Source of the DNA: Escherichia coli
GTDB taxonomy: Bacteria > Pseudomonadota > Gammaproteobacteria > Enterobacterales > Enterobacteriaceae
Length of the DNA: 64,000 bases
Assembly (NCBI RefSeq): GCF_011045215.1
Contig: NZ_CP049202.1
Reading direction: 5' to 3' (one strand)
Numbering within the stretch: the stretch's first letter is position 1; every line of letters begins with the position of its first letter. Positions 2,105-53,902 of this stretch are shown piece by piece. The notes below the pieces were generated by a model. It saw only the letters and a list, made by a program, of their open reading frames with translations, was not told the DNA's origin and ran no database searches. Both the position numbers and the translations under genes were made by a program.

Positions 2105-2395
2105 TCAATAGACTGCGTGAATATCGATGGTTGCACCACATGCCTGAGCATATCTTGTCAAAGTTTTCATACTGGCTCCTAAAGGATTACTTTCCAGCCG
2201 GCTGATGGCTGACGGGCGTACCCCCATTCGTTCGGCCAGCGCTGACTTTGTTAACCCCGCTTTTTCTCTCATTTCGTACAACATTTCTACCATCTCCAGT
2301 TCTTTATCGGCATCTTCATAGCCTTTGACAGCTTCCGGAGTATTAAGCAGTTTTTGCTTTACCTGGCTGAACGGAACACCTTTTACTTTCATCAT
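2105..2395 (-). CDS. higA: HigA-like antitoxin, XRE-family helix-turn-helix
   Basis: 96 aa with C-terminal HTH (LTKSALAERMGVRPSAISRLE); 4-bp overlap with the upstream toxin gene. Confidence 0.7.
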   Translation of the reverse strand: MMKVKGVPFSQVKQKLLNTPEAVKGYEDADKELEMVEMLYEMREKAGLTKSALAERMGVRPSAISRLESNPLGASMKTLTRYAQACGATIDIHAVY

Positions 2396-2703
2396 TTCAT
2401 CTCCTTCAGGCGCATCCTGGCGATTTCAATAGCTTTTGTTGGTGTCTTTTGCGTCTTTTTCACAAATGCATGCAGCAGATAGATTTCATTACCCGTTGCA
2501 TAAGCGTACAGTGTCCTTGCGACATTTTTATCCCCGACTCTCAGTTCAAAAAGTCCTCCACCAATTACACGGCTGTGAGGCATTTTCATTTTATTGCCTT
2601 CCTGTTCCAGCCGTTCAATCAATCTGGCCATGCGACCACGTAGATTATCTGGTAATTCAATCAACTCATTCAGTGCGGCCGGGTGAGTAATCACATTAAA
2701 CAT
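2392..2703 (-). CDS. higB: HigB-like toxin (RelE/ParE superfamily), toxin-first operon
   Basis: Start at internal ATG 2703 with GGAGG Shine-Dalgarno; about 103 aa; toxin-upstream/antitoxin-downstream order typical of higBA. Confidence 0.65.
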   Translation of the reverse strand: MFNVITHPAALNELIELPDNLRGRMARLIERLEQEGNKMKMPHSRVIGGGLFELRVGDKNVARTLYAYATGNEIYLLHAFVKKTQKTPTKAIEIARMRLKEMK

Positions 2704-2800
2704 ATTATAGCCTCCGAAAGGATAAAATACATCAGAACAGGAAAATTGCACAAATATAAAATTTCACTGATAAGTGAAACACATGTTAAGTACAGTTTTG

Positions 2801-2913
2801 ATGCCGCGTCAGCGGCATGGAAGGCGGCACTCCGTTGTAGCATATGGCGCAGGAGTAAAACCGCCGAAGCCCGGCGTAAGCCGATACTGATTGATAGATT
2901 TCACCTTACCCAT
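2801..2913. repeat. conserved ~115-bp structured element, copy A (second copy at 34460-34582)
   Basis: 38-bp and about 57-bp blocks nearly identical to copy B, separated by an 18-bp variable segment; begins with hairpin TGCCGC-GTCA-GCGGCA. Confidence 0.6.
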
Positions 2914-3057
2914 CCCCGGCCCTTGTATGTAATAGGACTCGATGGCTAGCTACCATCATATGAAGCAGAGTGAGCTTGTCCCAGCCCTGAACAGTCAGAC
3001 TTTGATTAGCAGCAAAAGCCCTCTGCTGTAAGCGTCAACGGAGCACCGTATTGACGC

Positions 3058-4650
3058 TTATTTATTGGTGAGAACCACGTTCCATGGCAGGAGTTCGTCA
3101 ACACGGTTGGAGGGCCATTCCGGCAGTACGCTCAGAATATGGCGCAGATACGCTTCCGGATCGATACCGTTCAGACGGCAGGTGCCGATCAGCCCGTATA
3201 GCAGTGCACCACGCTCGCCGCCGTGATCGCTACCGAAGAACACGTAATTTTTCTTTCCAAGACAGACTGCACGAAGCGCTCTTTCCGCTGTGTTATTGTC
3301 CGTCTCCGCCAGTCCGTCATCACTGTAATAACAGAGGGCGTCCCACTGATTCAGTACATAGCTGAACGCTTCGCCCAGTCTGGATTTTTTCGACAGCGTG
3401 CCATTCTTCTCCACCATCCATTCATGCAGCGACGTCAGTAACGCTTTGCTTCGCTGCTGTCTGACTGCAAGACGCTCTGACTCTGGTAATCCCCGTATCT
3501 CATCCTCGATGGCGTACAGTTCACTGATTCGCTTCAGGGCTTCTTCTGCCGTCGCACTTTTGCTGCTGATGTATACATCGTGGATTTTTCTCCGGGCATG
3601 GGCCCAGCACGCAACTTCTGTCAGCGCACCACCTTCACGTTCTGCACTGAACAGCCTGTCATAACCTGTGAACGCATCCGCCTGCAGGATACCCCGGAAG
3701 GGGCGGAGGTGTTGCTCCGGGTGTTTCCCCTGCCGGTTCGGTGAGTACGCGAACCAGACCGCCGGAGGAGATGACGAACCCGCATTGCGATCATCCCGGA
3801 CATACGTCCAGATGCGCCCTGTTTTCGTCTTTTTCAGGCCCGGTGCCAGTACCTTTACCGGTGTGTCGTCAGTGTGAAGCTTGCGGGTATTCATCACATA
3901 ACGGTACAGGGCATCATTCAGCGGTGTCATTAACTGGCAGCACGCGTCAACCCAGTTGGAGAGTAATGCACGGCTCAGTTCGACACCCTGTCGGGCAAAG
4001 ATTTCACTCTGACGATACAGTGGCAGGTGTTCGCAGTATTTTCCCGTTAACACGCGGGCAAGTAATCCGGGGCCCGCGATACCACGCTCTATCGGGCGGG
4101 ACGGCGCCGGTGCTTCAACGATGCAGTCACATTTTATACAGGCTTTTTTTACCCGTTCTGTGCGGATCACTTTCAGGGCGCTGCTCACCAGTTCCAGTTG
4201 TTCTGCACTGACTTCCCCCAGATAATCCAGCTCACCGCCACACTCCGGGCAACAGCTTTCTTCAGACTCCAGACGCTGTATTTCACGGGGAAGGTGTGCC
4301 GGTAACGGACGACGATGGCGCGACTGTCGCAACTGGCGGGGAACCTGTGGATCGTCTTCCCGCCCACTGTAACGATCGCTGTCCTGTTCGCGTTGTTTCA
4401 GCAGGGCCTCAGCCTGTTCAACTTCACGACGCAGTTTTTCAGAACGGGTACCGAACAGCATCCGGCGCAGTTTTTCTATCTGAGCCCGCAGATGTTCTAT
4501 TTCCCGTTCATCTTCTTCGATCTTTTCTTCGGCACGTGCCAGTGCAGAGCGCAGGAAGGCCTCCGTCTCTTCAACCAGACTCAGTTGCTGGTCTTTCTGG
4601 CGGAGCTGGCTTTCCAGTTCTGCAATGCGAATGAGGTATTTCTGACTCAT
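3058..4650 (-). CDS. tnpC: IS66-family transposase TnpC
   Basis: 530 aa; leucine-zipper N-terminus, CxxC zinc motifs, KYxEHLPLYRQ motif, DDE region, C-terminal LPWN. Confidence 0.9.
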   Translation of the reverse strand: MSQKYLIRIAELESQLRQKDQQLSLVEETEAFLRSALARAEEKIEEDEREIEHLRAQIEKLRRMLFGTRSEKLRREVEQAEALLKQREQDSDRYSGREDDPQVPRQLRQSRHRRPLPAHLPREIQRLESEESCCPECGGELDYLGEVSAEQLELVSSALKVIRTERVKKACIKCDCIVEAPAPSRPIERGIAGPGLLARVLTGKYCEHLPLYRQSEIFARQGVELSRALLSNWVDACCQLMTPLNDALYRYVMNTRKLHTDDTPVKVLAPGLKKTKTGRIWTYVRDDRNAGSSSPPAVWFAYSPNRQGKHPEQHLRPFRGILQADAFTGYDRLFSAEREGGALTEVACWAHARRKIHDVYISSKSATAEEALKRISELYAIEDEIRGLPESERLAVRQQRSKALLTSLHEWMVEKNGTLSKKSRLGEAFSYVLNQWDALCYYSDDGLAETDNNTAERALRAVCLGKKNYVFFGSDHGGERGALLYGLIGTCRLNGIDPEAYLRHILSVLPEWPSNRVDELLPWNVVLTNK

Positions 4651-33846: not shown

Positions 33847-34140
33847 TTATTTCATTCGCTCACTGGCAATATTATAAACGTTACACCGCTCTCGTTTCCC
33901 TACAGCAATCACCCATATAACAATTTCTTCATCAATGACCTTATAAATAAGCCTAAACCCAGATGCTCTCAGTTTTATTTTAAAACATCCAGCTAGATCA
34001 CCATGAAGCCTGGCAGCACCAGTGTAAGGATTATGCTGTAGTTTTCTGAGTTTCTTTTTAAACTGGTCACGTATTGTCTTGTCCAGCTTATTCCACTCTT
34101 TAAGGGCCCTTTCGTCAAAGTCGATATTAAAGGTCATCAA
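33847..34140 (-). CDS. relE: RelE-family toxin
   Basis: 97 aa; ...FDERALKEWNKLDKTIRDQFKKKL...CFKIKLRASGFRLIYKVIDEEIVIWVIAVGKRER close to E. coli RelE as recalled. Confidence 0.8.
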   Translation of the reverse strand: MMTFNIDFDERALKEWNKLDKTIRDQFKKKLRKLQHNPYTGAARLHGDLAGCFKIKLRASGFRLIYKVIDEEIVIWVIAVGKRERCNVYNIASERMK

Positions 34141-34381
34141 TATTCACCCTGATGCGTCTGGCAGGATTTTTCAGTCGTTCTCTGACAATATTCAGAATAT
34201 CTTCGTCCTCATCATTATCACTGACAACAACAGACACTTCATTGAAAGGGAGTTTTTCATTTTCAGCGACATAACGGAGAAAAAGGCGGAGAGCTTCTGA
34301 AGGTGAAAGATTGAGCTTTTCGAAGACCTGCCAGGCATTTTTCTTCAGTTCTTCATCGACACGAATTTGAACAGTACTCAT
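34127..34381 (-). CDS. relB: RelB-family antitoxin
   Basis: Start ATG 34381 with GGAG Shine-Dalgarno; MSTVQIRVDEELKKNAWQVFEKLNLSPSEALRLFL...; overlaps relE start. Confidence 0.75.
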   Translation of the reverse strand: MSTVQIRVDEELKKNAWQVFEKLNLSPSEALRLFLRYVAENEKLPFNEVSVVVSDNDEDEDILNIVRERLKNPARRIRVNIDDL

Positions 34382-34459
34382 GATAATACTCCGGTAATAA
34401 AGTATGCAGGCAGTATATACGTGAACAGATGTAATGACAAATGTATTGACATGTGACCT

Positions 34460-36888: not shown

Positions 36889-36981
36889 ATAGCTGAATTG
36901 TTGGCTATACGGTTTTTAGATGGCCCCGGTAATCTTTCTAGCTCGCCAAAGTTAAAGAAGATTATCGGGGTTTTCACTTTT
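36889..36981 (+). ncRNA. copA: CopA-like antisense RNA (replication copy-number control)
   Basis: About 92 nt between the promoter and a U-tract; 13-bp stem CCCCGGUAAUCUU/AAGAUUAUCGGGG with a loop containing CGCCAAA; position between repA2 and repA1 as in IncFII. Confidence 0.55.
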
Positions 36982-37362: not shown

Positions 37363-37432
37363 CTCGCCTCCTCAATACTCAAACAGGGATCGTTTCGCAG
37401 AGGATACTACAGTTTTTTTTAATCAGCGACTT

Positions 37433-37563
37433 GAAAGTTGTGACGATGACATGTGTTGGCGCACAAATCATGTCTGATTACGACCGTTTAATGTGATTTT
37501 GATAATGAAATGACTGAAAAGCAGGAAATGCCTTAACCTGTGTGCCCCCGGGCGGGGCTGGCG
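37433..37563. repeat. about 130-bp direct repeat, copy 1 (repA2 upstream region)
   Basis: About 90 percent identical to 38553-38676; the two copies bracket the GNAT/RHH toxin-antitoxin module. Confidence 0.7.
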
Positions 37564-37669: not shown

Positions 37670-38152
37670 TCAGACTTTATAAAATAAGGTGTCAGGTGCC
37701 ACAACTGACTGGACAAAACCAAAACGCTCATAAAACGCTCTGGCGTCATCATCAATTGCATGCACCATAACCGCCTTAACGCCAACCTGTTCAGCCACAT
37801 TTACAACCCGGTGAATAGCATCACTCAGCAGCCATTTACCGAAACCATGCCCCTGGGTACAAACATCAACAGCCAGACGCCCTAACAGAACAACAGGAAC
37901 AGGATTAGGCATGTTATGCCGCAAACTGCGCCCAAGCTCGGCATGTGTGACGGAACCCGTAGCTAATGAGTAGAACCCCACAACACGTAAAGTCCCCTCC
38001 AGGCAAATAACGAACGTGCGGGAAGCATTGAGCATCTGGTTTTTCATAGCCCGACCACGTAACCAGTTACTTAGCACCTCATTTCCACAGTCAAATGGCT
38101 GAAGTATATGCTCATCCGTCAGCAATGCCGGCGCGGTGACATTTATTTCCAT
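37670..38152 (-). CDS. GNAT-family acetyltransferase toxin (TacT/KacT/AtaT-like)
   Basis: 160 aa GNAT fold motifs (...LGRLAVDVCTQGHGFGKWLL...); overlaps the upstream RHH antitoxin gene by 10 bp. Confidence 0.75.
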   Translation of the reverse strand: MEINVTAPALLTDEHILQPFDCGNEVLSNWLRGRAMKNQMLNASRTFVICLEGTLRVVGFYSLATGSVTHAELGRSLRHNMPNPVPVVLLGRLAVDVCTQGHGFGKWLLSDAIHRVVNVAEQVGVKAVMVHAIDDDARAFYERFGFVQSVVAPDTLFYKV

Positions 38153-38433
38153 TCAGGCTTTACCGCCATCAGACGTTCACGCCCTTCTGCATTCTGCACA
38201 GGAGCTTCCAGTTGCGTAATAAACGAATCATAACGTTCGTTATCCAGCACAAATAAGCGTTGATCCAGGATAATGTTTTTAGCTTCCTGGTAAGCCAGTT
38301 CAATGATGAAATCAGTACGGTTCTTATTGACCAGGCTCGCAGCATAATCAATAACGGCTCGTTCCTCATCAGTTGCCCGGATGTTAATCTGGTTTTCTCG
38401 CGGTGTTTTACGGACGCTTGCAGCTGTAGACAT
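38143..38433 (-). CDS. DUF1778-type RHH antitoxin (TacA/KacA-like)
   Basis: ATG 38433 with GAGG Shine-Dalgarno; about 96 aa; ...INIRATDEERAVIDYAASL... Confidence 0.7.
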   Translation of the reverse strand: MSTAASVRKTPRENQINIRATDEERAVIDYAASLVNKNRTDFIIELAYQEAKNIILDQRLFVLDNERYDSFITQLEAPVQNAEGRERLMAVKPEWK

Positions 38434-38552
38434 AAAAACCTCAATTGGTAACAATTTGCTATACAATTAATGTTATCGCAAATGGTAACAAAACGCTATA
38501 CAAAATCACTTACGGGAAAAGTGATCACTGATAAAAACAATGACAGAGGCCT

Positions 38553-38676
38553 GAAAATTGTGACGATGATATATGCTGGCGCACAAATCATGTCTGATTA
38601 CGACCGTTTAATGTGATTTCGATAATGAAATAACTGAAAAGCAGGAAATGCCTTAACCTGTGTGCCGGCCCCGGGC
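38553..38676. repeat. about 130-bp direct repeat, copy 2 (upstream of the toxin-antitoxin module)
   Basis: See 37433-37563. Confidence 0.7.
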
Positions 38677-38765
38677 GGGACCGGCTGTTTCCGGCATGTC
38701 GGGTGTCTGCCCCTGAAATACCTCACACTTCCGGAAAGCGGGGACTTCCGTCTCCGCCCGGCAGC

Positions 38766-38915
38766 TTACTTCCGTGCTTCGTAGGCCAGAGTTATCTGCA
38801 CCACTGTATTTCTCCTGTGAATATTCAGCTCACACAACCGTTCCCTGAATATCAGTGAAAAACACAACAACGTGGCGCACACAGCGAGCAACCCTATAAG
38901 GGCATATTTCGTCAT
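38766..38915 (-). CDS. srnB: Hok/Gef/SrnB-family type I toxin (49 aa)
   Basis: MTKYALIGLLAVCATLLCFSLIFRERLCELNIHRRNTVVQITLAYEARK: one transmembrane helix plus conserved LCEL; GAGAGG Shine-Dalgarno; in-frame upstream extension from 38972 resembles a mok/srnB-prime reading frame. Confidence 0.75.
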   Translation of the reverse strand: MTKYALIGLLAVCATLLCFSLIFRERLCELNIHRRNTVVQITLAYEARK

Positions 38916-39260
38916 AAACTTTGACCTCTCTGCAAGGAAGAGGCTACAATCAGTAGTGTTAAGGTACTTCATGCAGACCTCACGAGTTAATGGATTAACG
39001 AGTGGGGTCTTCGCATTTCTGGTACCTGCGTCTTGCCTGAACCAGAAAGGCTCAGACACCCGCAGCGATAATACCACATTCCCGTTTGCCGGCCATGTAC
39101 CTGCATTTTCCGGTTATTATTATAAAAACGCCGGGGACGGGGAAAATTTGCTTTTTCCCGTTTCCGGGGTTGGACAACTGAGCAACGCGAAGGCGTCAGT
39201 TATTTCTGTTTATTACATTCTTCTGTATATTTTCTTTTTACAATTCGACACTGCCTTATC

Positions 39261-39470
39261 TCACCTGACATATGCCCAGACCTCTTTGGGAACTCTGTCA
39301 TATAACCTGTTCATCGTTAATTCAGCAAGACGGTGGTCTGCTGCTGAATTGAAGGCCTCACGCTCACTGTCCGGTAAATCATAGGTGTTCTTACAGATAA
39401 TCTTTTCCAGTGTATTCACCGATGAACACCGCCGTAACTGATATAACCATTCCTGTTTTGTTTTCGCCAT
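39261..39470 (-). CDS. hypothetical protein (69 aa)
   Basis: ORF between the hok-like gene and finO; no family recognised. Confidence 0.3.
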   Translation of the reverse strand: MAKTKQEWLYQLRRCSSVNTLEKIICKNTYDLPDSEREAFNSAADHRLAELTMNRLYDRVPKEVWAYVR

Positions 39471-40009
39471 ATTTATTTCCAGTCAGCATGATAATTATAT
39501 GTATTAAAATTCAACGATACAGTCTTTCATTTAATGACTACACCGCTGTCTTTCGCTACAGTTCCCCCTGCAGCGCCGCTGGCAATGCTCTGCTCTTTGC
39601 AGGGCAGACTGTTGCCACTCTGCCCGGGAAGCCATCTGTGCGGCCCGACGCCACGCTCCGGCAGCCTCTCTCCATCGCCCCCTGACCTCCAGTCTGACCG
39701 CCTGACTCCCGGCTTGCTGATAATTCTGGCTCTGCGCATTTCGTGAACTTCGTCTGAGTCCATTCATTTTTCCTGTCCCCTTTTACCTTTCCCGATACCA
39801 GCGGAATTCAGGATAAACGTTACTTTCTGATTATTTTTTATCTCTTTGTGTCAAAAGTCATTTCGGATATCCAGGATAATACCCCTCATTTAACTTAAGA
39901 ATAAACATGTGTTACTATATCGCTGCGTAACTTTGTTTGAAGTTCATAATAAAAAATCAGGGGTGAACAGGATTTCCTCCATCACGCGATGGAGGATTTT
40001 TTTACTGCT

Positions 40010-51059: not shown

Positions 51060-53902
51060 AATGGTCCCTTCAGTTGATTCTTTTTCTCATCAATCATTTT
51101 TTTCACAGTCTCTTCTGATGGCTCAGGTATTATCTTTTGACTTTCTCGCTCTTCATTATATTTATTATTCTGAGATAATGCTTCTGTTTTATGGTGATTT
51201 TGTAGTTCAGAATACTGTTTTCTTACAATATTTTCCTCGCCTCGGATGCTGTTCTGAGTATCTCCGATATTACCTCGATATTCTGTGACCATATTATCAA
51301 CCTGATGTTTTACATCATCACGGATATTACTGTCCTGCGTTCTTTGATCAATAATGGCCTGATGCCCCTGATGGTCAGCAATAATATCCTGGCTGCCACC
51401 ACCCGAAGGTACGCTCTCCATTCCTTTACCAATATCGCCACGGGATTCACGCCAGGCATTATCAACACCAGGCTGTATCTGTTCCTGCACAAAAGACCAG
51501 GCCATCGCCCGACGGCGTTCTGCAATCTCCGGCGAACTGGTATTTGTCAGAATAGCTTCGGCATCCTGCGGTGCGTGTTTCATCACATACTGTGCAAACT
51601 GTTGCGACAAATCTTCACTCATCTGCCCACTCATGCTTTCAGTACGGGATGCCATTTCAGCATATTCATGGCTGCGGGTCATATTCGTCGTGTACTGGTC
51701 GTAACTCTGTTTCGCTGAGTTCAGGGCTGCAGACAGCTGGTCCACACGGGAATCGGCATTATTGTCAGTATGGCTGCCGGACTCACTGACTTTGCGACTG
51801 GTAAAGTAATCGCTGGCCTCTTTAAAGTCCTTACTGGCTTTAGCATCGATATCATGTCGAGCATCATGGGTAGCCCTGCTGCCACTACTTGCAGAATGTG
51901 AATCATCATCCGTTCGATCAAGACTTCCCTTAAATCCGCCTCTGACACCAACTCCACCACCAACCCCAAGAATTTTAGGTTTAATCCCCCATTCAGCATG
52001 AGCATCTGCATATCCGCCATACGAGAACTTAGAACCTGTTGATGCCAGTTCCTGAGTCGCCTGCTCATTACTGATATTATGCGCTTTCGCATAGCTTTCC
52101 ACTGCACTGCGCATACGGCTGGCCATCATGGAGTCCTGTGCGCTCATCGTGCTGTCAGCGCCACCGGTGACAGAATCACTGCTCCCCCGGTTAGAACCAA
52201 ACTGACTGAGCGTATTCCAGGCACTGGCAATACTGCTGCTGAACCCATGCAGGGCGCTTTCTGCTCTGTTCGATGCCTCCCGGGCCATTTCCTGTTGTGC
52301 CGCCGCAATCTGACGCGTTGCATTGATACCGACCGGTAAACGGGACATCGCTCCGCTTGCATCCATAACCATATTACCGTCACGGGTCTGTGTGGCGGTT
52401 GCGCCACTGCCGGTCTGGTACATCATCTGACCAAACGACGTGGTGCTGTTGGTGCTCCAGCTGAAGCCGTTCACGTTTTCCGTCTGCATGTTGCCGTAGG
52501 AGTAATTACCGTCAACCACACTGCCTGCTGCACTGGCCGTCGGACTGATAGATGAAGAGGCGAAGTGGCTGTACACACTGGAAAAACCTGCGCCAAGGCC
52601 TTTTACCATCATCCATGACAACGGGGGTATCATGACAGATATATATCCGGCAGTGGACGCCAGGTCGGAGTATTTCAGCTGTATCTGAGAGAGTTCAGAG
52701 AGCACGACCGGTGCACCATTCTGCTTTGCATAGAATGTCATGGCACTGTTCAGAATGGCATACAGCAACGGCCAGGTCTGGAACCACATCAGGGCAAACA
52801 CATAGCCCTTCAGTACAGACAGCGTTAACCTGTTGAAGACCGCCGCCAGTACCAGGAGCGGGAAGATACCAATGGTAATGCCCACCAGAATGGTCTGCAC
52901 CATCGGCAGGTTTCGCATCAGCACATGACCAATGGAGACATGTGCCAGACGCTGTTTCTCCATCGACGAGGTCGTGGCCAGACTGACCAGGCTGGCGGTA
53001 TCACCGTTACGGGCTGCATTACTGGTGATACCCTCTTTCAGGGCATTCATGGTGACGTTCTGGCGCATAATATGGCTGGCAGACTGGCTGGAGCCGTAGA
53101 AATAACTGTAACTGTCACTCACCAGTTGCCTGAATAACAGGTCCGGGTCCGGTCTGCCGCCAAATATCTGCTGGACATAATAATGCCAGGTCTTGCCTCC
53201 GGTATTCGTATCAAAATTCAGCTTATCCTTCAGTCCGACGGATGCGTCCTTACAGGACACAAACGGCTCTGAACTGTGCAGAAAACTGTAATTATTATTC
53301 GGCACCTGACGTAAAGGGCTGGGCTGAGAAAAGATTATGGTGTACGGGTCAGAGGAGGCCATCAGGTCTTCCAGCGTGTATTTGTGATTCAGGTAAATAT
53401 CACCCAGCACGCAGTTCTGGACGTAGTCCTGAAACAGATTGATGATTTCCGGATTCCGGGACAGAAAATCGGTGCTTTTCACAATCAGGTTCGCCCCGAA
53501 CAGCATGCCTGTCTTGCTGTAGGTGGCGCTGTCAGGCTGAGCGAACACCATCTCATAGCCGGCCACCATTGCATGCCCGATACGGGTCGTCAGTGAAAGT
53601 GGCATCGCCAGTCCGACCGGCACATTATCCACCCGATGGACTTTGACCAGGTCACTGTTATCAATAATCTGCACCGACGTGCGGACATTAACCAGCAGGC
53701 TGATAAGCACAAACACGGCCACCCAGCCCAGCAAATCCATCACGTTGTGCCGCTGTACCCATATCACGGCCACCGCGAGAACAGACAATGTGAGCGCAAT
53801 TTTTTCAATGGAATCCCACGTCCTGGTTCCCATAAAGGCGGCAATGGCGTTCAGGTTATTCCGCAACCATTCACCACCGGCAATCACATAAACTTCATTC
53901 AC
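51056..53902 (-). CDS. traG: TraG mating-pair stabilisation / pilus assembly protein
   Basis: 948 aa; MNEVYVIAGGEWLRN... N-terminus; F-type position and length. Confidence 0.9.
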   Translation of the reverse strand: MNEVYVIAGGEWLRNNLNAIAAFMGTRTWDSIEKIALTLSVLAVAVIWVQRHNVMDLLGWVAVFVLISLLVNVRTSVQIIDNSDLVKVHRVDNVPVGLAMPLSLTTRIGHAMVAGYEMVFAQPDSATYSKTGMLFGANLIVKSTDFLSRNPEIINLFQDYVQNCVLGDIYLNHKYTLEDLMASSDPYTIIFSQPSPLRQVPNNNYSFLHSSEPFVSCKDASVGLKDKLNFDTNTGGKTWHYYVQQIFGGRPDPDLLFRQLVSDSYSYFYGSSQSASHIMRQNVTMNALKEGITSNAARNGDTASLVSLATTSSMEKQRLAHVSIGHVLMRNLPMVQTILVGITIGIFPLLVLAAVFNRLTLSVLKGYVFALMWFQTWPLLYAILNSAMTFYAKQNGAPVVLSELSQIQLKYSDLASTAGYISVMIPPLSWMMVKGLGAGFSSVYSHFASSSISPTASAAGSVVDGNYSYGNMQTENVNGFSWSTNSTTSFGQMMYQTGSGATATQTRDGNMVMDASGAMSRLPVGINATRQIAAAQQEMAREASNRAESALHGFSSSIASAWNTLSQFGSNRGSSDSVTGGADSTMSAQDSMMASRMRSAVESYAKAHNISNEQATQELASTGSKFSYGGYADAHAEWGIKPKILGVGGGVGVRGGFKGSLDRTDDDSHSASSGSRATHDARHDIDAKASKDFKEASDYFTSRKVSESGSHTDNNADSRVDQLSAALNSAKQSYDQYTTNMTRSHEYAEMASRTESMSGQMSEDLSQQFAQYVMKHAPQDAEAILTNTSSPEIAERRRAMAWSFVQEQIQPGVDNAWRESRGDIGKGMESVPSGGGSQDIIADHQGHQAIIDQRTQDSNIRDDVKHQVDNMVTEYRGNIGDTQNSIRGEENIVRKQYSELQNHHKTEALSQNNKYNEERESQKIIPEPSEETVKKMIDEKKNQLKGPL

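Follow-up and report, generated by a model that had tools for sequence, protein, structure and literature searches.

The srnB-srnC system is a classical plasmid homologue of hok/sok, with which it has in common the control by an antisense RNA and the ability to cause post-segregational killing (PMC4147584; PMC3874152). The SrnB toxin lyses and kills E. coli, and the antisense RNA SrnC, which is transcribed from a promoter of its own, delays this killing; in plasmid F, the endogenous and constitutive promoter on the antisense strand (PsrnC) has been put to experimental use (PMC12390103). For the hok mRNA, a switch between alternative pairings of the elements tac, fbi, ucb and dcb has been described, and in hok/sok of plasmid R1 the upstream reading frame mok begins 19 codons before hok, and its translation is required no further than the initiation region of hok (PMC9841398). 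Among Hok peptides, seven residues are kept in over 80% of the sequences, namely M1, C16, T18, L30-C31-E32 and E41 (numbering of R1 Hok and of the corresponding logo), and single alanine substitutions at these seven positions did not abolish toxicity. In the older naming of the F system, the toxin is presumably srnB', the leader frame srnB and the antisense RNA srnC.

Here, we analysed a locus of this kind within a stretch of 64,000 nucleotides of Escherichia coli DNA, referred to as the window, in which a sequence-only reading had pointed out a hok/srnB-type toxin at 38766-38972. Positions are those of the window unless a plasmid accession is given, and up to nine sampled loci, including the one in the window, were compared.

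Identity and setting of the locus

The minus strand of the window contains a reading frame, which runs from the ATG at 38972 to the TAA at 38768-38766 and encodes 68 amino acids (MKYLNTTDCSLFLAERSKF followed by MTKYALIGLLAVCATLLCFSLIFRERLCELNIHRRNTVVQITLAYEARK). That a hok/srnB-type toxin is encoded at this place was borne out by protein, RNA and plasmid comparisons. The Pfam family HOK_GEF (PF01848) matched the 49-aa form with 28.8 bits and the 68-aa form with 27.6 bits (cut-off 22). The Rfam model RF01794 ('sok') matched the minus strand from 39061 to 38905 with 94.3 bits (gathering score 59), which takes in the full model length of 1-157 and represents the single gathering-level Rfam match in the srnB region. 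The comparison with srnB of plasmid F, which the earlier reading had proposed, revealed the same locus: The transcribed region (~38633-39061) is 97.0% identical to its F counterpart (448 of 462 positions), and in F (NC_002483) the same gene is found at 2926-3075, adjoining repA2. The exact sequence of the 68-aa product of F is deposited in the protein collection as 'Protein SrnB' (SRNB_ECOLI), and on the grounds of this name together with the identity to F we assign the window locus to srnB. It is thus very probably the srnB/srnC locus of F-like (IncF) plasmids, i.e. a type I toxin-antitoxin (post-segregational killing) module of the hok/sok family. The system is already described, and the allele is known though uncommon; the locus is an ordinary feature.

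A search with the 561-bp locus (megablast) returned 2890 plasmid records, nearly all of them from Escherichia, Klebsiella, Shigella and Salmonella. Small ORFs of such a size are common (38000-39800 is overlapped by 34 with a length of 20 aa or more), and one of them could lie by chance and without function in the spacer between hha/finO and the replicon. However, the Pfam and Rfam matches are both above the curated thresholds, the locus is 97% identical to an experimentally characterised one and it is conserved in about 2900 plasmids, so that the probability of a mere chance ORF is negligible and this explanation can be considered refuted.

Two further ORFs were rejected as mechanical ORFs. 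One encodes 103 aa and begins with the GTG at 39077, which is located upstream of the predicted 5' end of the mRNA (39061) and is therefore irrelevant as a start; the other encodes 170 aa on the plus strand (38872-39384). Neither of them is annotated in the relatives examined. In the annotated relatives, a 'Hok/Gef family protein' CDS is the only feature displayed at the locus.

The residues M1, C13, T15 and L27-C28-E29 of the 49-aa form match conserved residues of Hok in a manual alignment anchored on the LCE motif. The position equivalent to E41 of Hok is occupied by Val in the window toxin as well as in SrnB of F, a departure which is found throughout the srnB subfamily.

On the minus strand, the order of genes around the locus is traI, traX, finO, a hypothetical gene, hha, srnB, TacA/GNAT, repA2 (copB), CopA, tap and repA1. 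The earlier reading had counted five addiction modules in the window, three of them around the replicon, and both statements hold: Pfam confirmed the four other toxin-antitoxin pairs, and the ParE/RelE-superfamily/RelB pair, the TacA/GNAT pair and srnB flank the CopA/RepA replicon. With one type I and four type II modules, the description of the maintenance set of the IncF plasmid in the window is now complete. The features of the locus and its surroundings are compiled in Table 1.

Table 1 Positions of the srnB/srnC elements, of the other toxin-antitoxin modules in the window and of the F reference locus.
Feature	Position	Strand	Remarks
Leader (upstream) reading frame, mok analogue	38766..38972	minus	in frame with the toxin; gives the 68-aa 'SrnB' of UniProt
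Toxin gene, 49-aa Hok/Gef membrane peptide	38766..38915	minus	Pfam PF01848
Toxin Shine-Dalgarno (SD) sequence, GAGAGG	38925..38930	minus	9-nt spacer to ATG 38915; overlaps -35 of antisense promoter
Leader SD, GAGG	38978..38981	minus	5 nt 5' of ATG 38972; invariant (8 loci)
Putative weak mRNA promoter, extended -10 TGgTATTAT with poor -35	39068..39076	minus	inferred
Predicted full-length srnB mRNA, ~430 nt, 5' end GGGUGUCUGAGCC	38633..39061	minus	3' end approximate
tac, mRNA 5' end, GGGUGUCUG	39053..39061	minus	fold pairing; invariant in 8 loci
ucb/anti-SD, GACCCCAC, mRNA 53-60	39002..39009	minus	fold pairing
fbi, CAGACACCC, 3' UTR, mRNA 353-361	38701..38709	minus	pairs with tac
3'-terminal hairpins beyond fbi, with a GC-rich stem GCCGGUCCC/GGGGCCGGC	38645..38700	minus	
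Antisense promoter PsrnC, TTGACC-18 nt-TACAAT	38921..38950	plus	
Predicted SrnC antisense RNA (antitoxin), ~65-70 nt	~38957..39025	plus	ends approximate
Gp49/HigB-like + HTH	2108-2703		Pfam
ParE + ParD	25973-26541		Pfam
ParE/RelE-superfamily + RelB	33850-34384		Pfam
GNAT + TacA	37673-38430		Pfam
CopA	36889-36979		
srnB/srnC locus of plasmid F	NC_002483 ~2780-3208		UniProt SRNB_ECOLI

Reading frame of the leader

The 49-aa ORF had been noted to possess its own ribosome-binding site and to stay open for 19 codons upstream, an arrangement that was thought to be reminiscent of mok/srnB' coupling. Indeed, the ORF is preceded by its own SD sequence at a suitable spacing (Table 1), and the frame is open and in frame up to the ATG at 38972, but this in-frame state is not conserved among the relatives. 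In all nine sampled loci the leader ATG is located 19 codons before the toxin ATG, and start, SD and length are kept. The in-frame 68-aa form is present in five of them (the window, NZ_CP010123, F, pFEMG and CP057046). The remaining four carry a deletion of 1 nt after codon 3, which results in a leader of 19 aa, e.g. MKYLALLIVASSLQRGQSL, the TGA of which overlaps the toxin ATG as ATGA. The sequence of the leader peptide is wholly different between the two forms. Three of the out-of-frame loci have a full-length toxin ORF; in two of them (L004 and L005) the toxin is identical to that of F, and in the third (L003) it shows one change, L10I.

Both forms are widespread on plasmids. Queries specific for each variant (44/45-mers, for which the 28-nt megablast seed must span the indel) retrieved the in-frame sequence from at least 1207 plasmid records, of which 1117 belong to Escherichia, and the out-of-frame sequence from at least 731, with Klebsiella accounting for 531; as the two queries miss other leader variants, among them L003, L005 and L008, both numbers are minimum values. 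A tblastn search with the 68-aa query and a coverage of at least 80% fails to separate in-frame from frameshifted loci. Coverage does not discriminate here, since the toxin frame is open upstream even in frameshifted loci, where the alignments start at residue 4-6.

Since the frame is not conserved, while the start, the SD and the distance of 19 codons are, the extension is best regarded as a coupling leader and not as something that the toxin requires. The comparison of frames thus supports, at the level of sequence, a translational coupling similar to that of mok, as had been suggested before, rather than a required fusion protein, and it indicates that the translation of the leader would matter and not the leader peptide.

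As an alternative, the functional toxin of this allele could be the 68-aa in-frame protein, which SrnC would control directly by covering its SD and AUG; no coupling to an internal start would be needed, and the locus would be a simple type I module with one ORF. In favour of this, the open frame continues in phase from the upstream ATG into the toxin, the GAGG in front of this ATG is a good SD and is part of the antisense target, and the 68-aa form bears the name SrnB or Hok family toxin in UniProt and in some GenBank entries; moreover, in the in-frame allele ribosomes that initiate at the leader must also make a 68-aa chain. On the other hand, in the 68-aa form the Pfam domain does not begin before residue 23, and the long form scores slightly lower than the 49-aa one. 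An intact 49-aa ORF, complete with an SD and ATG of its own, is retained in at least 731 plasmids with an out-of-frame leader, from which it follows that the 19 N-terminal residues are dispensable in nature. In addition, it is the 49-aa form that PGAP annotates in F and in the best-match plasmid (as 'Hok/Gef family protein'), and in R1 translation of mok is required only up to the start of hok. Taken together, we consider it unlikely that the 68-aa form is the toxin proper, and we retain the 49-aa peptide with a coupling leader as the preferred reading.

The frame dimorphism could be of some interest beyond the window. In the accessible literature we found no statement of a widespread dimorphism of the leader frame, which makes it a mildly new point, and a 2026 preprint on the diversity of Hok explicitly excluded Mok, which was deemed hard to annotate. 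We attach only a low probability to the idea that the split between in-frame and out-of-frame srnB represents an undescribed natural experiment on mok-type coupling. If true, the 68-aa SrnB of the in-frame alleles could differ in membrane insertion, toxicity or the timing of killing. For hok-family loci, the comparison provides modest but clean evidence from related loci for selection on the translation of the leader and on the RNA sequence, and not on the leader peptide.

RNA elements and condition of the window allele

Position 1 of the mRNA was set at 39061, which corresponds to position 1 of the RF01794 model and at which the conservation with F begins. The block GGGAATGTGGTATTATC just upstream of this predicted start is identical in eight of the nine loci and marks the beginning of the homology to F. 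The putative mRNA promoter was not reported by a simple scanner because it has no match to a -35 element. A canonical intrinsic terminator was not found by the scanner for either of the two RNAs, and the 3' ends are therefore only approximate; the 3'-terminal hairpins downstream of fbi (helices 15 and 16 of the predicted fold) are probably the end of the transcript and the region of 3' processing.

The predicted fold of the full-length mRNA has a free energy of -179.9 kcal/mol (z = -7.2 compared to shuffled sequences). In both the minimum free energy (MFE) and the centroid structure, tac is paired with fbi by nine contiguous base pairs (mRNA 1-9 with 353-361) and additionally by 12-14 with 348-350, and all nine pairs are kept in seven of eight loci. 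In this fold ucb pairs with the region of the leader SD (mRNA 79-86), which is thereby sequestered. When the mRNA was truncated to 1-345, the MFE structure contained the tac:ucb pairing and the leader SD was open. After truncation to 340, 335, 330 or 320 nt, tac paired instead with mRNA 19-28 (39034-39043) in a hairpin of the metastable type, and the SD stayed closed. The open fold was thus the thermodynamic prediction at one of the five truncation lengths tried. According to these models, all three alternative partners of tac that are described for the hok mRNA appear to be available in this locus, and in silico the open form of the mRNA would have no more than a marginal advantage. In every fold, the toxin SD is engaged in a pairing with mRNA 277-281, which lie within the coding region, and this fits the need for ribosomes translating the leader to open it.

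Only three columns vary among eight loci in the first 94 nt of the mRNA, fewer than in the coding region. This low variation is expected, since the segment is constrained by the folds of the mRNA and by the antisense gene on the opposite strand. Compared to F, mRNA 1-146, comprising the leader and the antisense region, differs by one base. Covariation is uninformative because the relatives are too similar: Among eight loci with 94-99% identity a single compensatory pair was detected, and 60 of 500 shuffles did equally well.

The sequence-only reading had not located the antisense RNA and had suggested a search of Rfam between 38900 and 39080. An antisense RNA can now be predicted, overlapping this interval (Table 1). 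The Rfam search itself succeeded in part: RF01794 matched the minus strand, whereas nothing was detected on the plus strand of 38600-39200 in E-value mode and no separate SrnC/Sok antisense model matched. As the match to 'sok' lies on the strand of the toxin mRNA, the model recognises the mRNA leader, and the antisense RNA is the complement of a part of it. For annotation, this calls for caution, since an Rfam 'sok' match marks the strand of the toxin-mRNA leader rather than the antisense RNA.

Between 38500 and 39300, no site other than PsrnC matched the sigma-70 consensus; PsrnC agrees with it at 10 of 12 positions. The promoter scan alone is at chance level, as one site was found and 1.3 +/- 1.1 were expected. 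We accept the promoter because of its position, its conservation and its identity in F, and not because of the scan: PsrnC is located within the leader ORF, where the antisense promoter of the family is expected; its -10 element is identical in all nine loci and its -35 element in eight, the ninth having TTGACA; and the sequence in F is the same.

The predicted SrnC starts about 7 nt downstream of the promoter and would fold into a long hairpin preceded by a short unpaired 5' tail, with -25.5 kcal/mol (z = -4.9), a stability reached by none of 200 shuffled sequences. It is complementary to mRNA ~37-105, a stretch that comprises ucb, the SD and AUG (38970-38972) of the leader and its first five codons, and within the SrnC region one position (alignment column 62) is different in F. 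The toxin SD (38925-38930) and ATG (38913-38915) are located outside the predicted SrnC, upstream of the PsrnC -35 on the plus strand, so that control of the toxin would be only indirect, via the upstream ORF, as known from mok of R1. An antisense promoter and a stable hairpin are hence both in place, and the toxin ORF is intact in eight of the nine sampled loci, which is not the picture of a degenerate reading frame devoid of an antisense RNA.

A mechanism for the locus can be outlined according to the hok paradigm, with the anatomy of the locus checked in the sequence. The weak extended -10 promoter at 39068-39076 would give rise to a stable mRNA of about 430 nt on the minus strand, reaching from 39061 to ~38633. 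The fresh mRNA would be inert, with tac paired to fbi and ucb masking the SD of the leader ORF that starts at 38972. Slow trimming from the 3' end would take off fbi, whereupon tac would pair anew with ucb and the leader SD would open. Ribosomes translating the leader could then enter the otherwise base-paired initiation region of the toxin (SD 38925-38930, ATG 38915), which would result in synthesis of the 49-aa toxin; in the in-frame allele, ribosomes initiating at the leader would also yield the extended 68-aa form. At the same time, the strong and constitutive plus-strand promoter within the leader ORF would produce the short and unstable SrnC (~38957-39025), which is proposed to bind the processed mRNA at the SD and AUG of the leader and to block translation of the leader and hence of the toxin, the SrnC:mRNA duplex being marked for RNase III. 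Upon loss of the plasmid, SrnC would disappear first and the long-lived mRNA would kill the cell. For the window allele, we infer toxicity, 3' processing, cleavage by RNase III, the transcript ends and plasmid stabilisation by analogy.

The window allele differs from F SrnB in the toxin by V16L, G35R and V41I, and in addition by a few changes in the 3' UTR. Its exact 49-aa sequence (WP_164476303.1) and 68-aa sequence are both already public and were found on 3 and 12 contigs, respectively, compared to at least 1000 for the F forms. Among the 2890 plasmid records, NZ_CP010123 (E. coli C5, cow) alone reaches an identity of 99% or more across the locus, and it has Gly at position 35. G35R and V41I each change a predicted U-G pair of the mRNA to U-A and are therefore both compatible with the structure of the mRNA.

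The rarity of this allele would fit a decaying, non-functional remnant with an inactive G35R toxin, the maintenance of the plasmid being left to the four nearby type II modules. A glycine at the position equivalent to G35 is common to Hok, SrnB and PndA, and a decayed relative does exist among the sampled loci: L008 is devoid of the promoter and the tac region, and a 3' deletion cuts its toxin to 44 aa. However, the ORF in the window is without stops or frameshifts, and all regulatory elements are intact and essentially identical to those of F. Gly38, as G35 is numbered in Hok, is not one of the seven strongly conserved positions (more than 80% of the peptides), at which single changes to alanine still leave the peptide toxic, and the structural compatibility of G35R and V41I likewise argues against decay. 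The text of the mutational scan published in NAR in 2022 makes no mention of the G38 equivalent of Hok, and G35R as an inactivating change found neither support nor refutation in these sources. We therefore regard a non-functional remnant as highly unlikely. The window copy shows no sign of decay. We give only a low probability to the idea that G35R, a rare change, has tuned or attenuated the toxin.

The significance of these results lies chiefly in annotation, and they imply no new biology. What they supply is the gene of the antisense antitoxin, which automatic annotation leaves out.

Comparison with known systems

The locus belongs to the same Hok/Gef type I family of membrane toxins under antisense RNA control as pndA/pndB (R483/R16), flmA/B (F) and the chromosomal hokA-E, which form sequence clusters of the family other than srnB; the chromosomal hok copies were reported not to mediate post-segregational killing. 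No locus of the pndA/B, flmA/B or chromosomal hok type was found in the 64-kb window, where RF01794 matched once only, and consequently the window contains no second hok-family locus.

In hok/sok (parB) of R1 with mok, which also belongs to the Hok/Gef family, the distance from the leader start to the toxin ATG is likewise 19 codons, and it is the leader SD and AUG, not the start of the toxin, at which the antisense RNA is directed; the model of a tac/fbi/ucb refolding switch with 3' processing may hold for both. In contrast, R1 Hok has diverged from the window toxin (Hok-like matches in tblastn are below 60% identity), mok is out of frame and overlaps all of hok (70 aa) while the window leader is in frame, and the tac and fbi sequences of R1 differ from those of the window.

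The srnB loci of IncFII/Klebsiella plasmids (e.g. pKPC2_020120, NZ_CP043358) have a transcript that is ~96% identical to that of the window. Loci of the pKPC2_020120 type encode the F toxin (WP_001312851.1) and have the same tac, ucb, SD, antisense promoter and fbi as the window, but unlike the window they carry the 1-nt deletion and thus the out-of-frame leader of 19 aa.

srnB/srnC of F shows the same in-frame arrangement of a 68-aa and a 49-aa form as the window, an identical antisense promoter and an antisense target that differs by one base. A difference concerns the immediate neighbourhood: In F, srnB abuts repA2, whereas in the window a 1.1-kb TacA/GNAT segment, which is flanked by a 123-nt direct repeat, parts srnB from repA2/copB. 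The locus occupies the same place in both, between finO and the RepFIIA/FIC replicon.

Two forms of the leader and apparently decayed copies of the locus

The leader ORF of srnB, the mok analogue, occurs in two forms in close relatives, which differ by a single-nucleotide indel. The in-frame form of 68 aa, as found in the window, is present in at least 1207 plasmid records, for the most part from Escherichia, and the form with the 1-nt deletion in at least 731 plasmid records, for the most part from Klebsiella. The deletion, which is carried by four of the nine loci compared (L003, L004, L005 and L008), results in an out-of-frame leader of 19 aa, whose TGA overlaps the toxin ATG as ATGA. Three bases downstream, the two forms also differ by A vs G (AAC vs AGC), a change that accompanies the indel.

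In some relatives, i.e. L008 (NZ_CP093070, 175-720) and the megablast matches H20-H23, the match begins only at query position 127, and these copies are without the srnB mRNA promoter, the tac element at the mRNA 5' end and the first hairpin. A further deletion in L008 takes the last toxin codons and leaves 44 aa. L008 and H20-H23 thus look like srnB loci in decay.

Toxin codons and the Rfam match

The Gly35Arg exchange (GGA to AGA, codon 35 of the 49-aa toxin) is found exclusively in the window among the nine loci, and the exact 49-aa toxin was seen on no more than three public contigs. In the predicted mRNA fold, G35R and V41I each convert one U-G pair into a U-A pair. The toxin codons Tyr45-Glu46 (UAC-GAA) form a TACG motif, which a preprint on Hok diversity ties to A-to-I editing by TadA (Tyr-to-Cys recoding) at position 48 of Hok, the equivalent position.

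The match to RF01794 ('sok antitoxin') lies on the strand of the toxin mRNA, not on the antisense strand; it begins at the 5' end of this mRNA and extends as far as the start codon of the toxin. Read literally, it would annotate an antitoxin RNA of 157 nt on the wrong strand.

Features in and around the srnB locus and further RNA matches in the window
Feature	Position	Strand	Remark
69-aa ORF	39261-39470	-	directly upstream of the srnB promoter
GC-rich hairpin	~39137-39159		between 69-aa ORF and srnB promoter
RF01794 match	38905-39061	-	
Leader indel site	38963-38964	-	
Gly35Arg codon	38811-38813	-	
TACG motif	38780-38783	-	
AS-traG (antisense to traG)	53077-53162	+	Rfam gathering-level, 108.7 bits
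CopA	36889-36979	+	Rfam gathering-level, 97.5 bits
123-nt direct repeat	37424-37546 and 38544-38666		copies 93% identical, 1120 bp apart

Plasmid surroundings of srnB

The counterpart of the upstream 69-aa ORF is annotated as 'hemolysin expression modulator Hha' in a near-identical record; the hairpin that follows it reads CGGGGAAAATTTGCTTTTTCCCG. The AS-traG and CopA matches are consistent with an IncF backbone.

Plasmid A of E. coli C5 (NZ_CP010123) is collinear with the window over positions 34860-62402 (95-99.6%), and the strain's other plasmid (NZ_CP010124) matches it at 99.6% over 2796-23126 and 25743-29466. Judged from these alignments, the window is a mosaic, with 1-34000 on one side and 34860-62402 on the other. 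This points to a cointegrate of two co-resident plasmids, or to a recombinant between them.

The TacA/GNAT pair lies between the two copies of the direct repeat, and the upstream copy and the srnB transcript overlap at the transcript's 3' end. In plasmid F, by comparison, the repeat sequence is present as a single copy that directly links srnB and repA2; the TacA/GNAT module therefore resembles an insertion accompanied by a duplication at its flanks.
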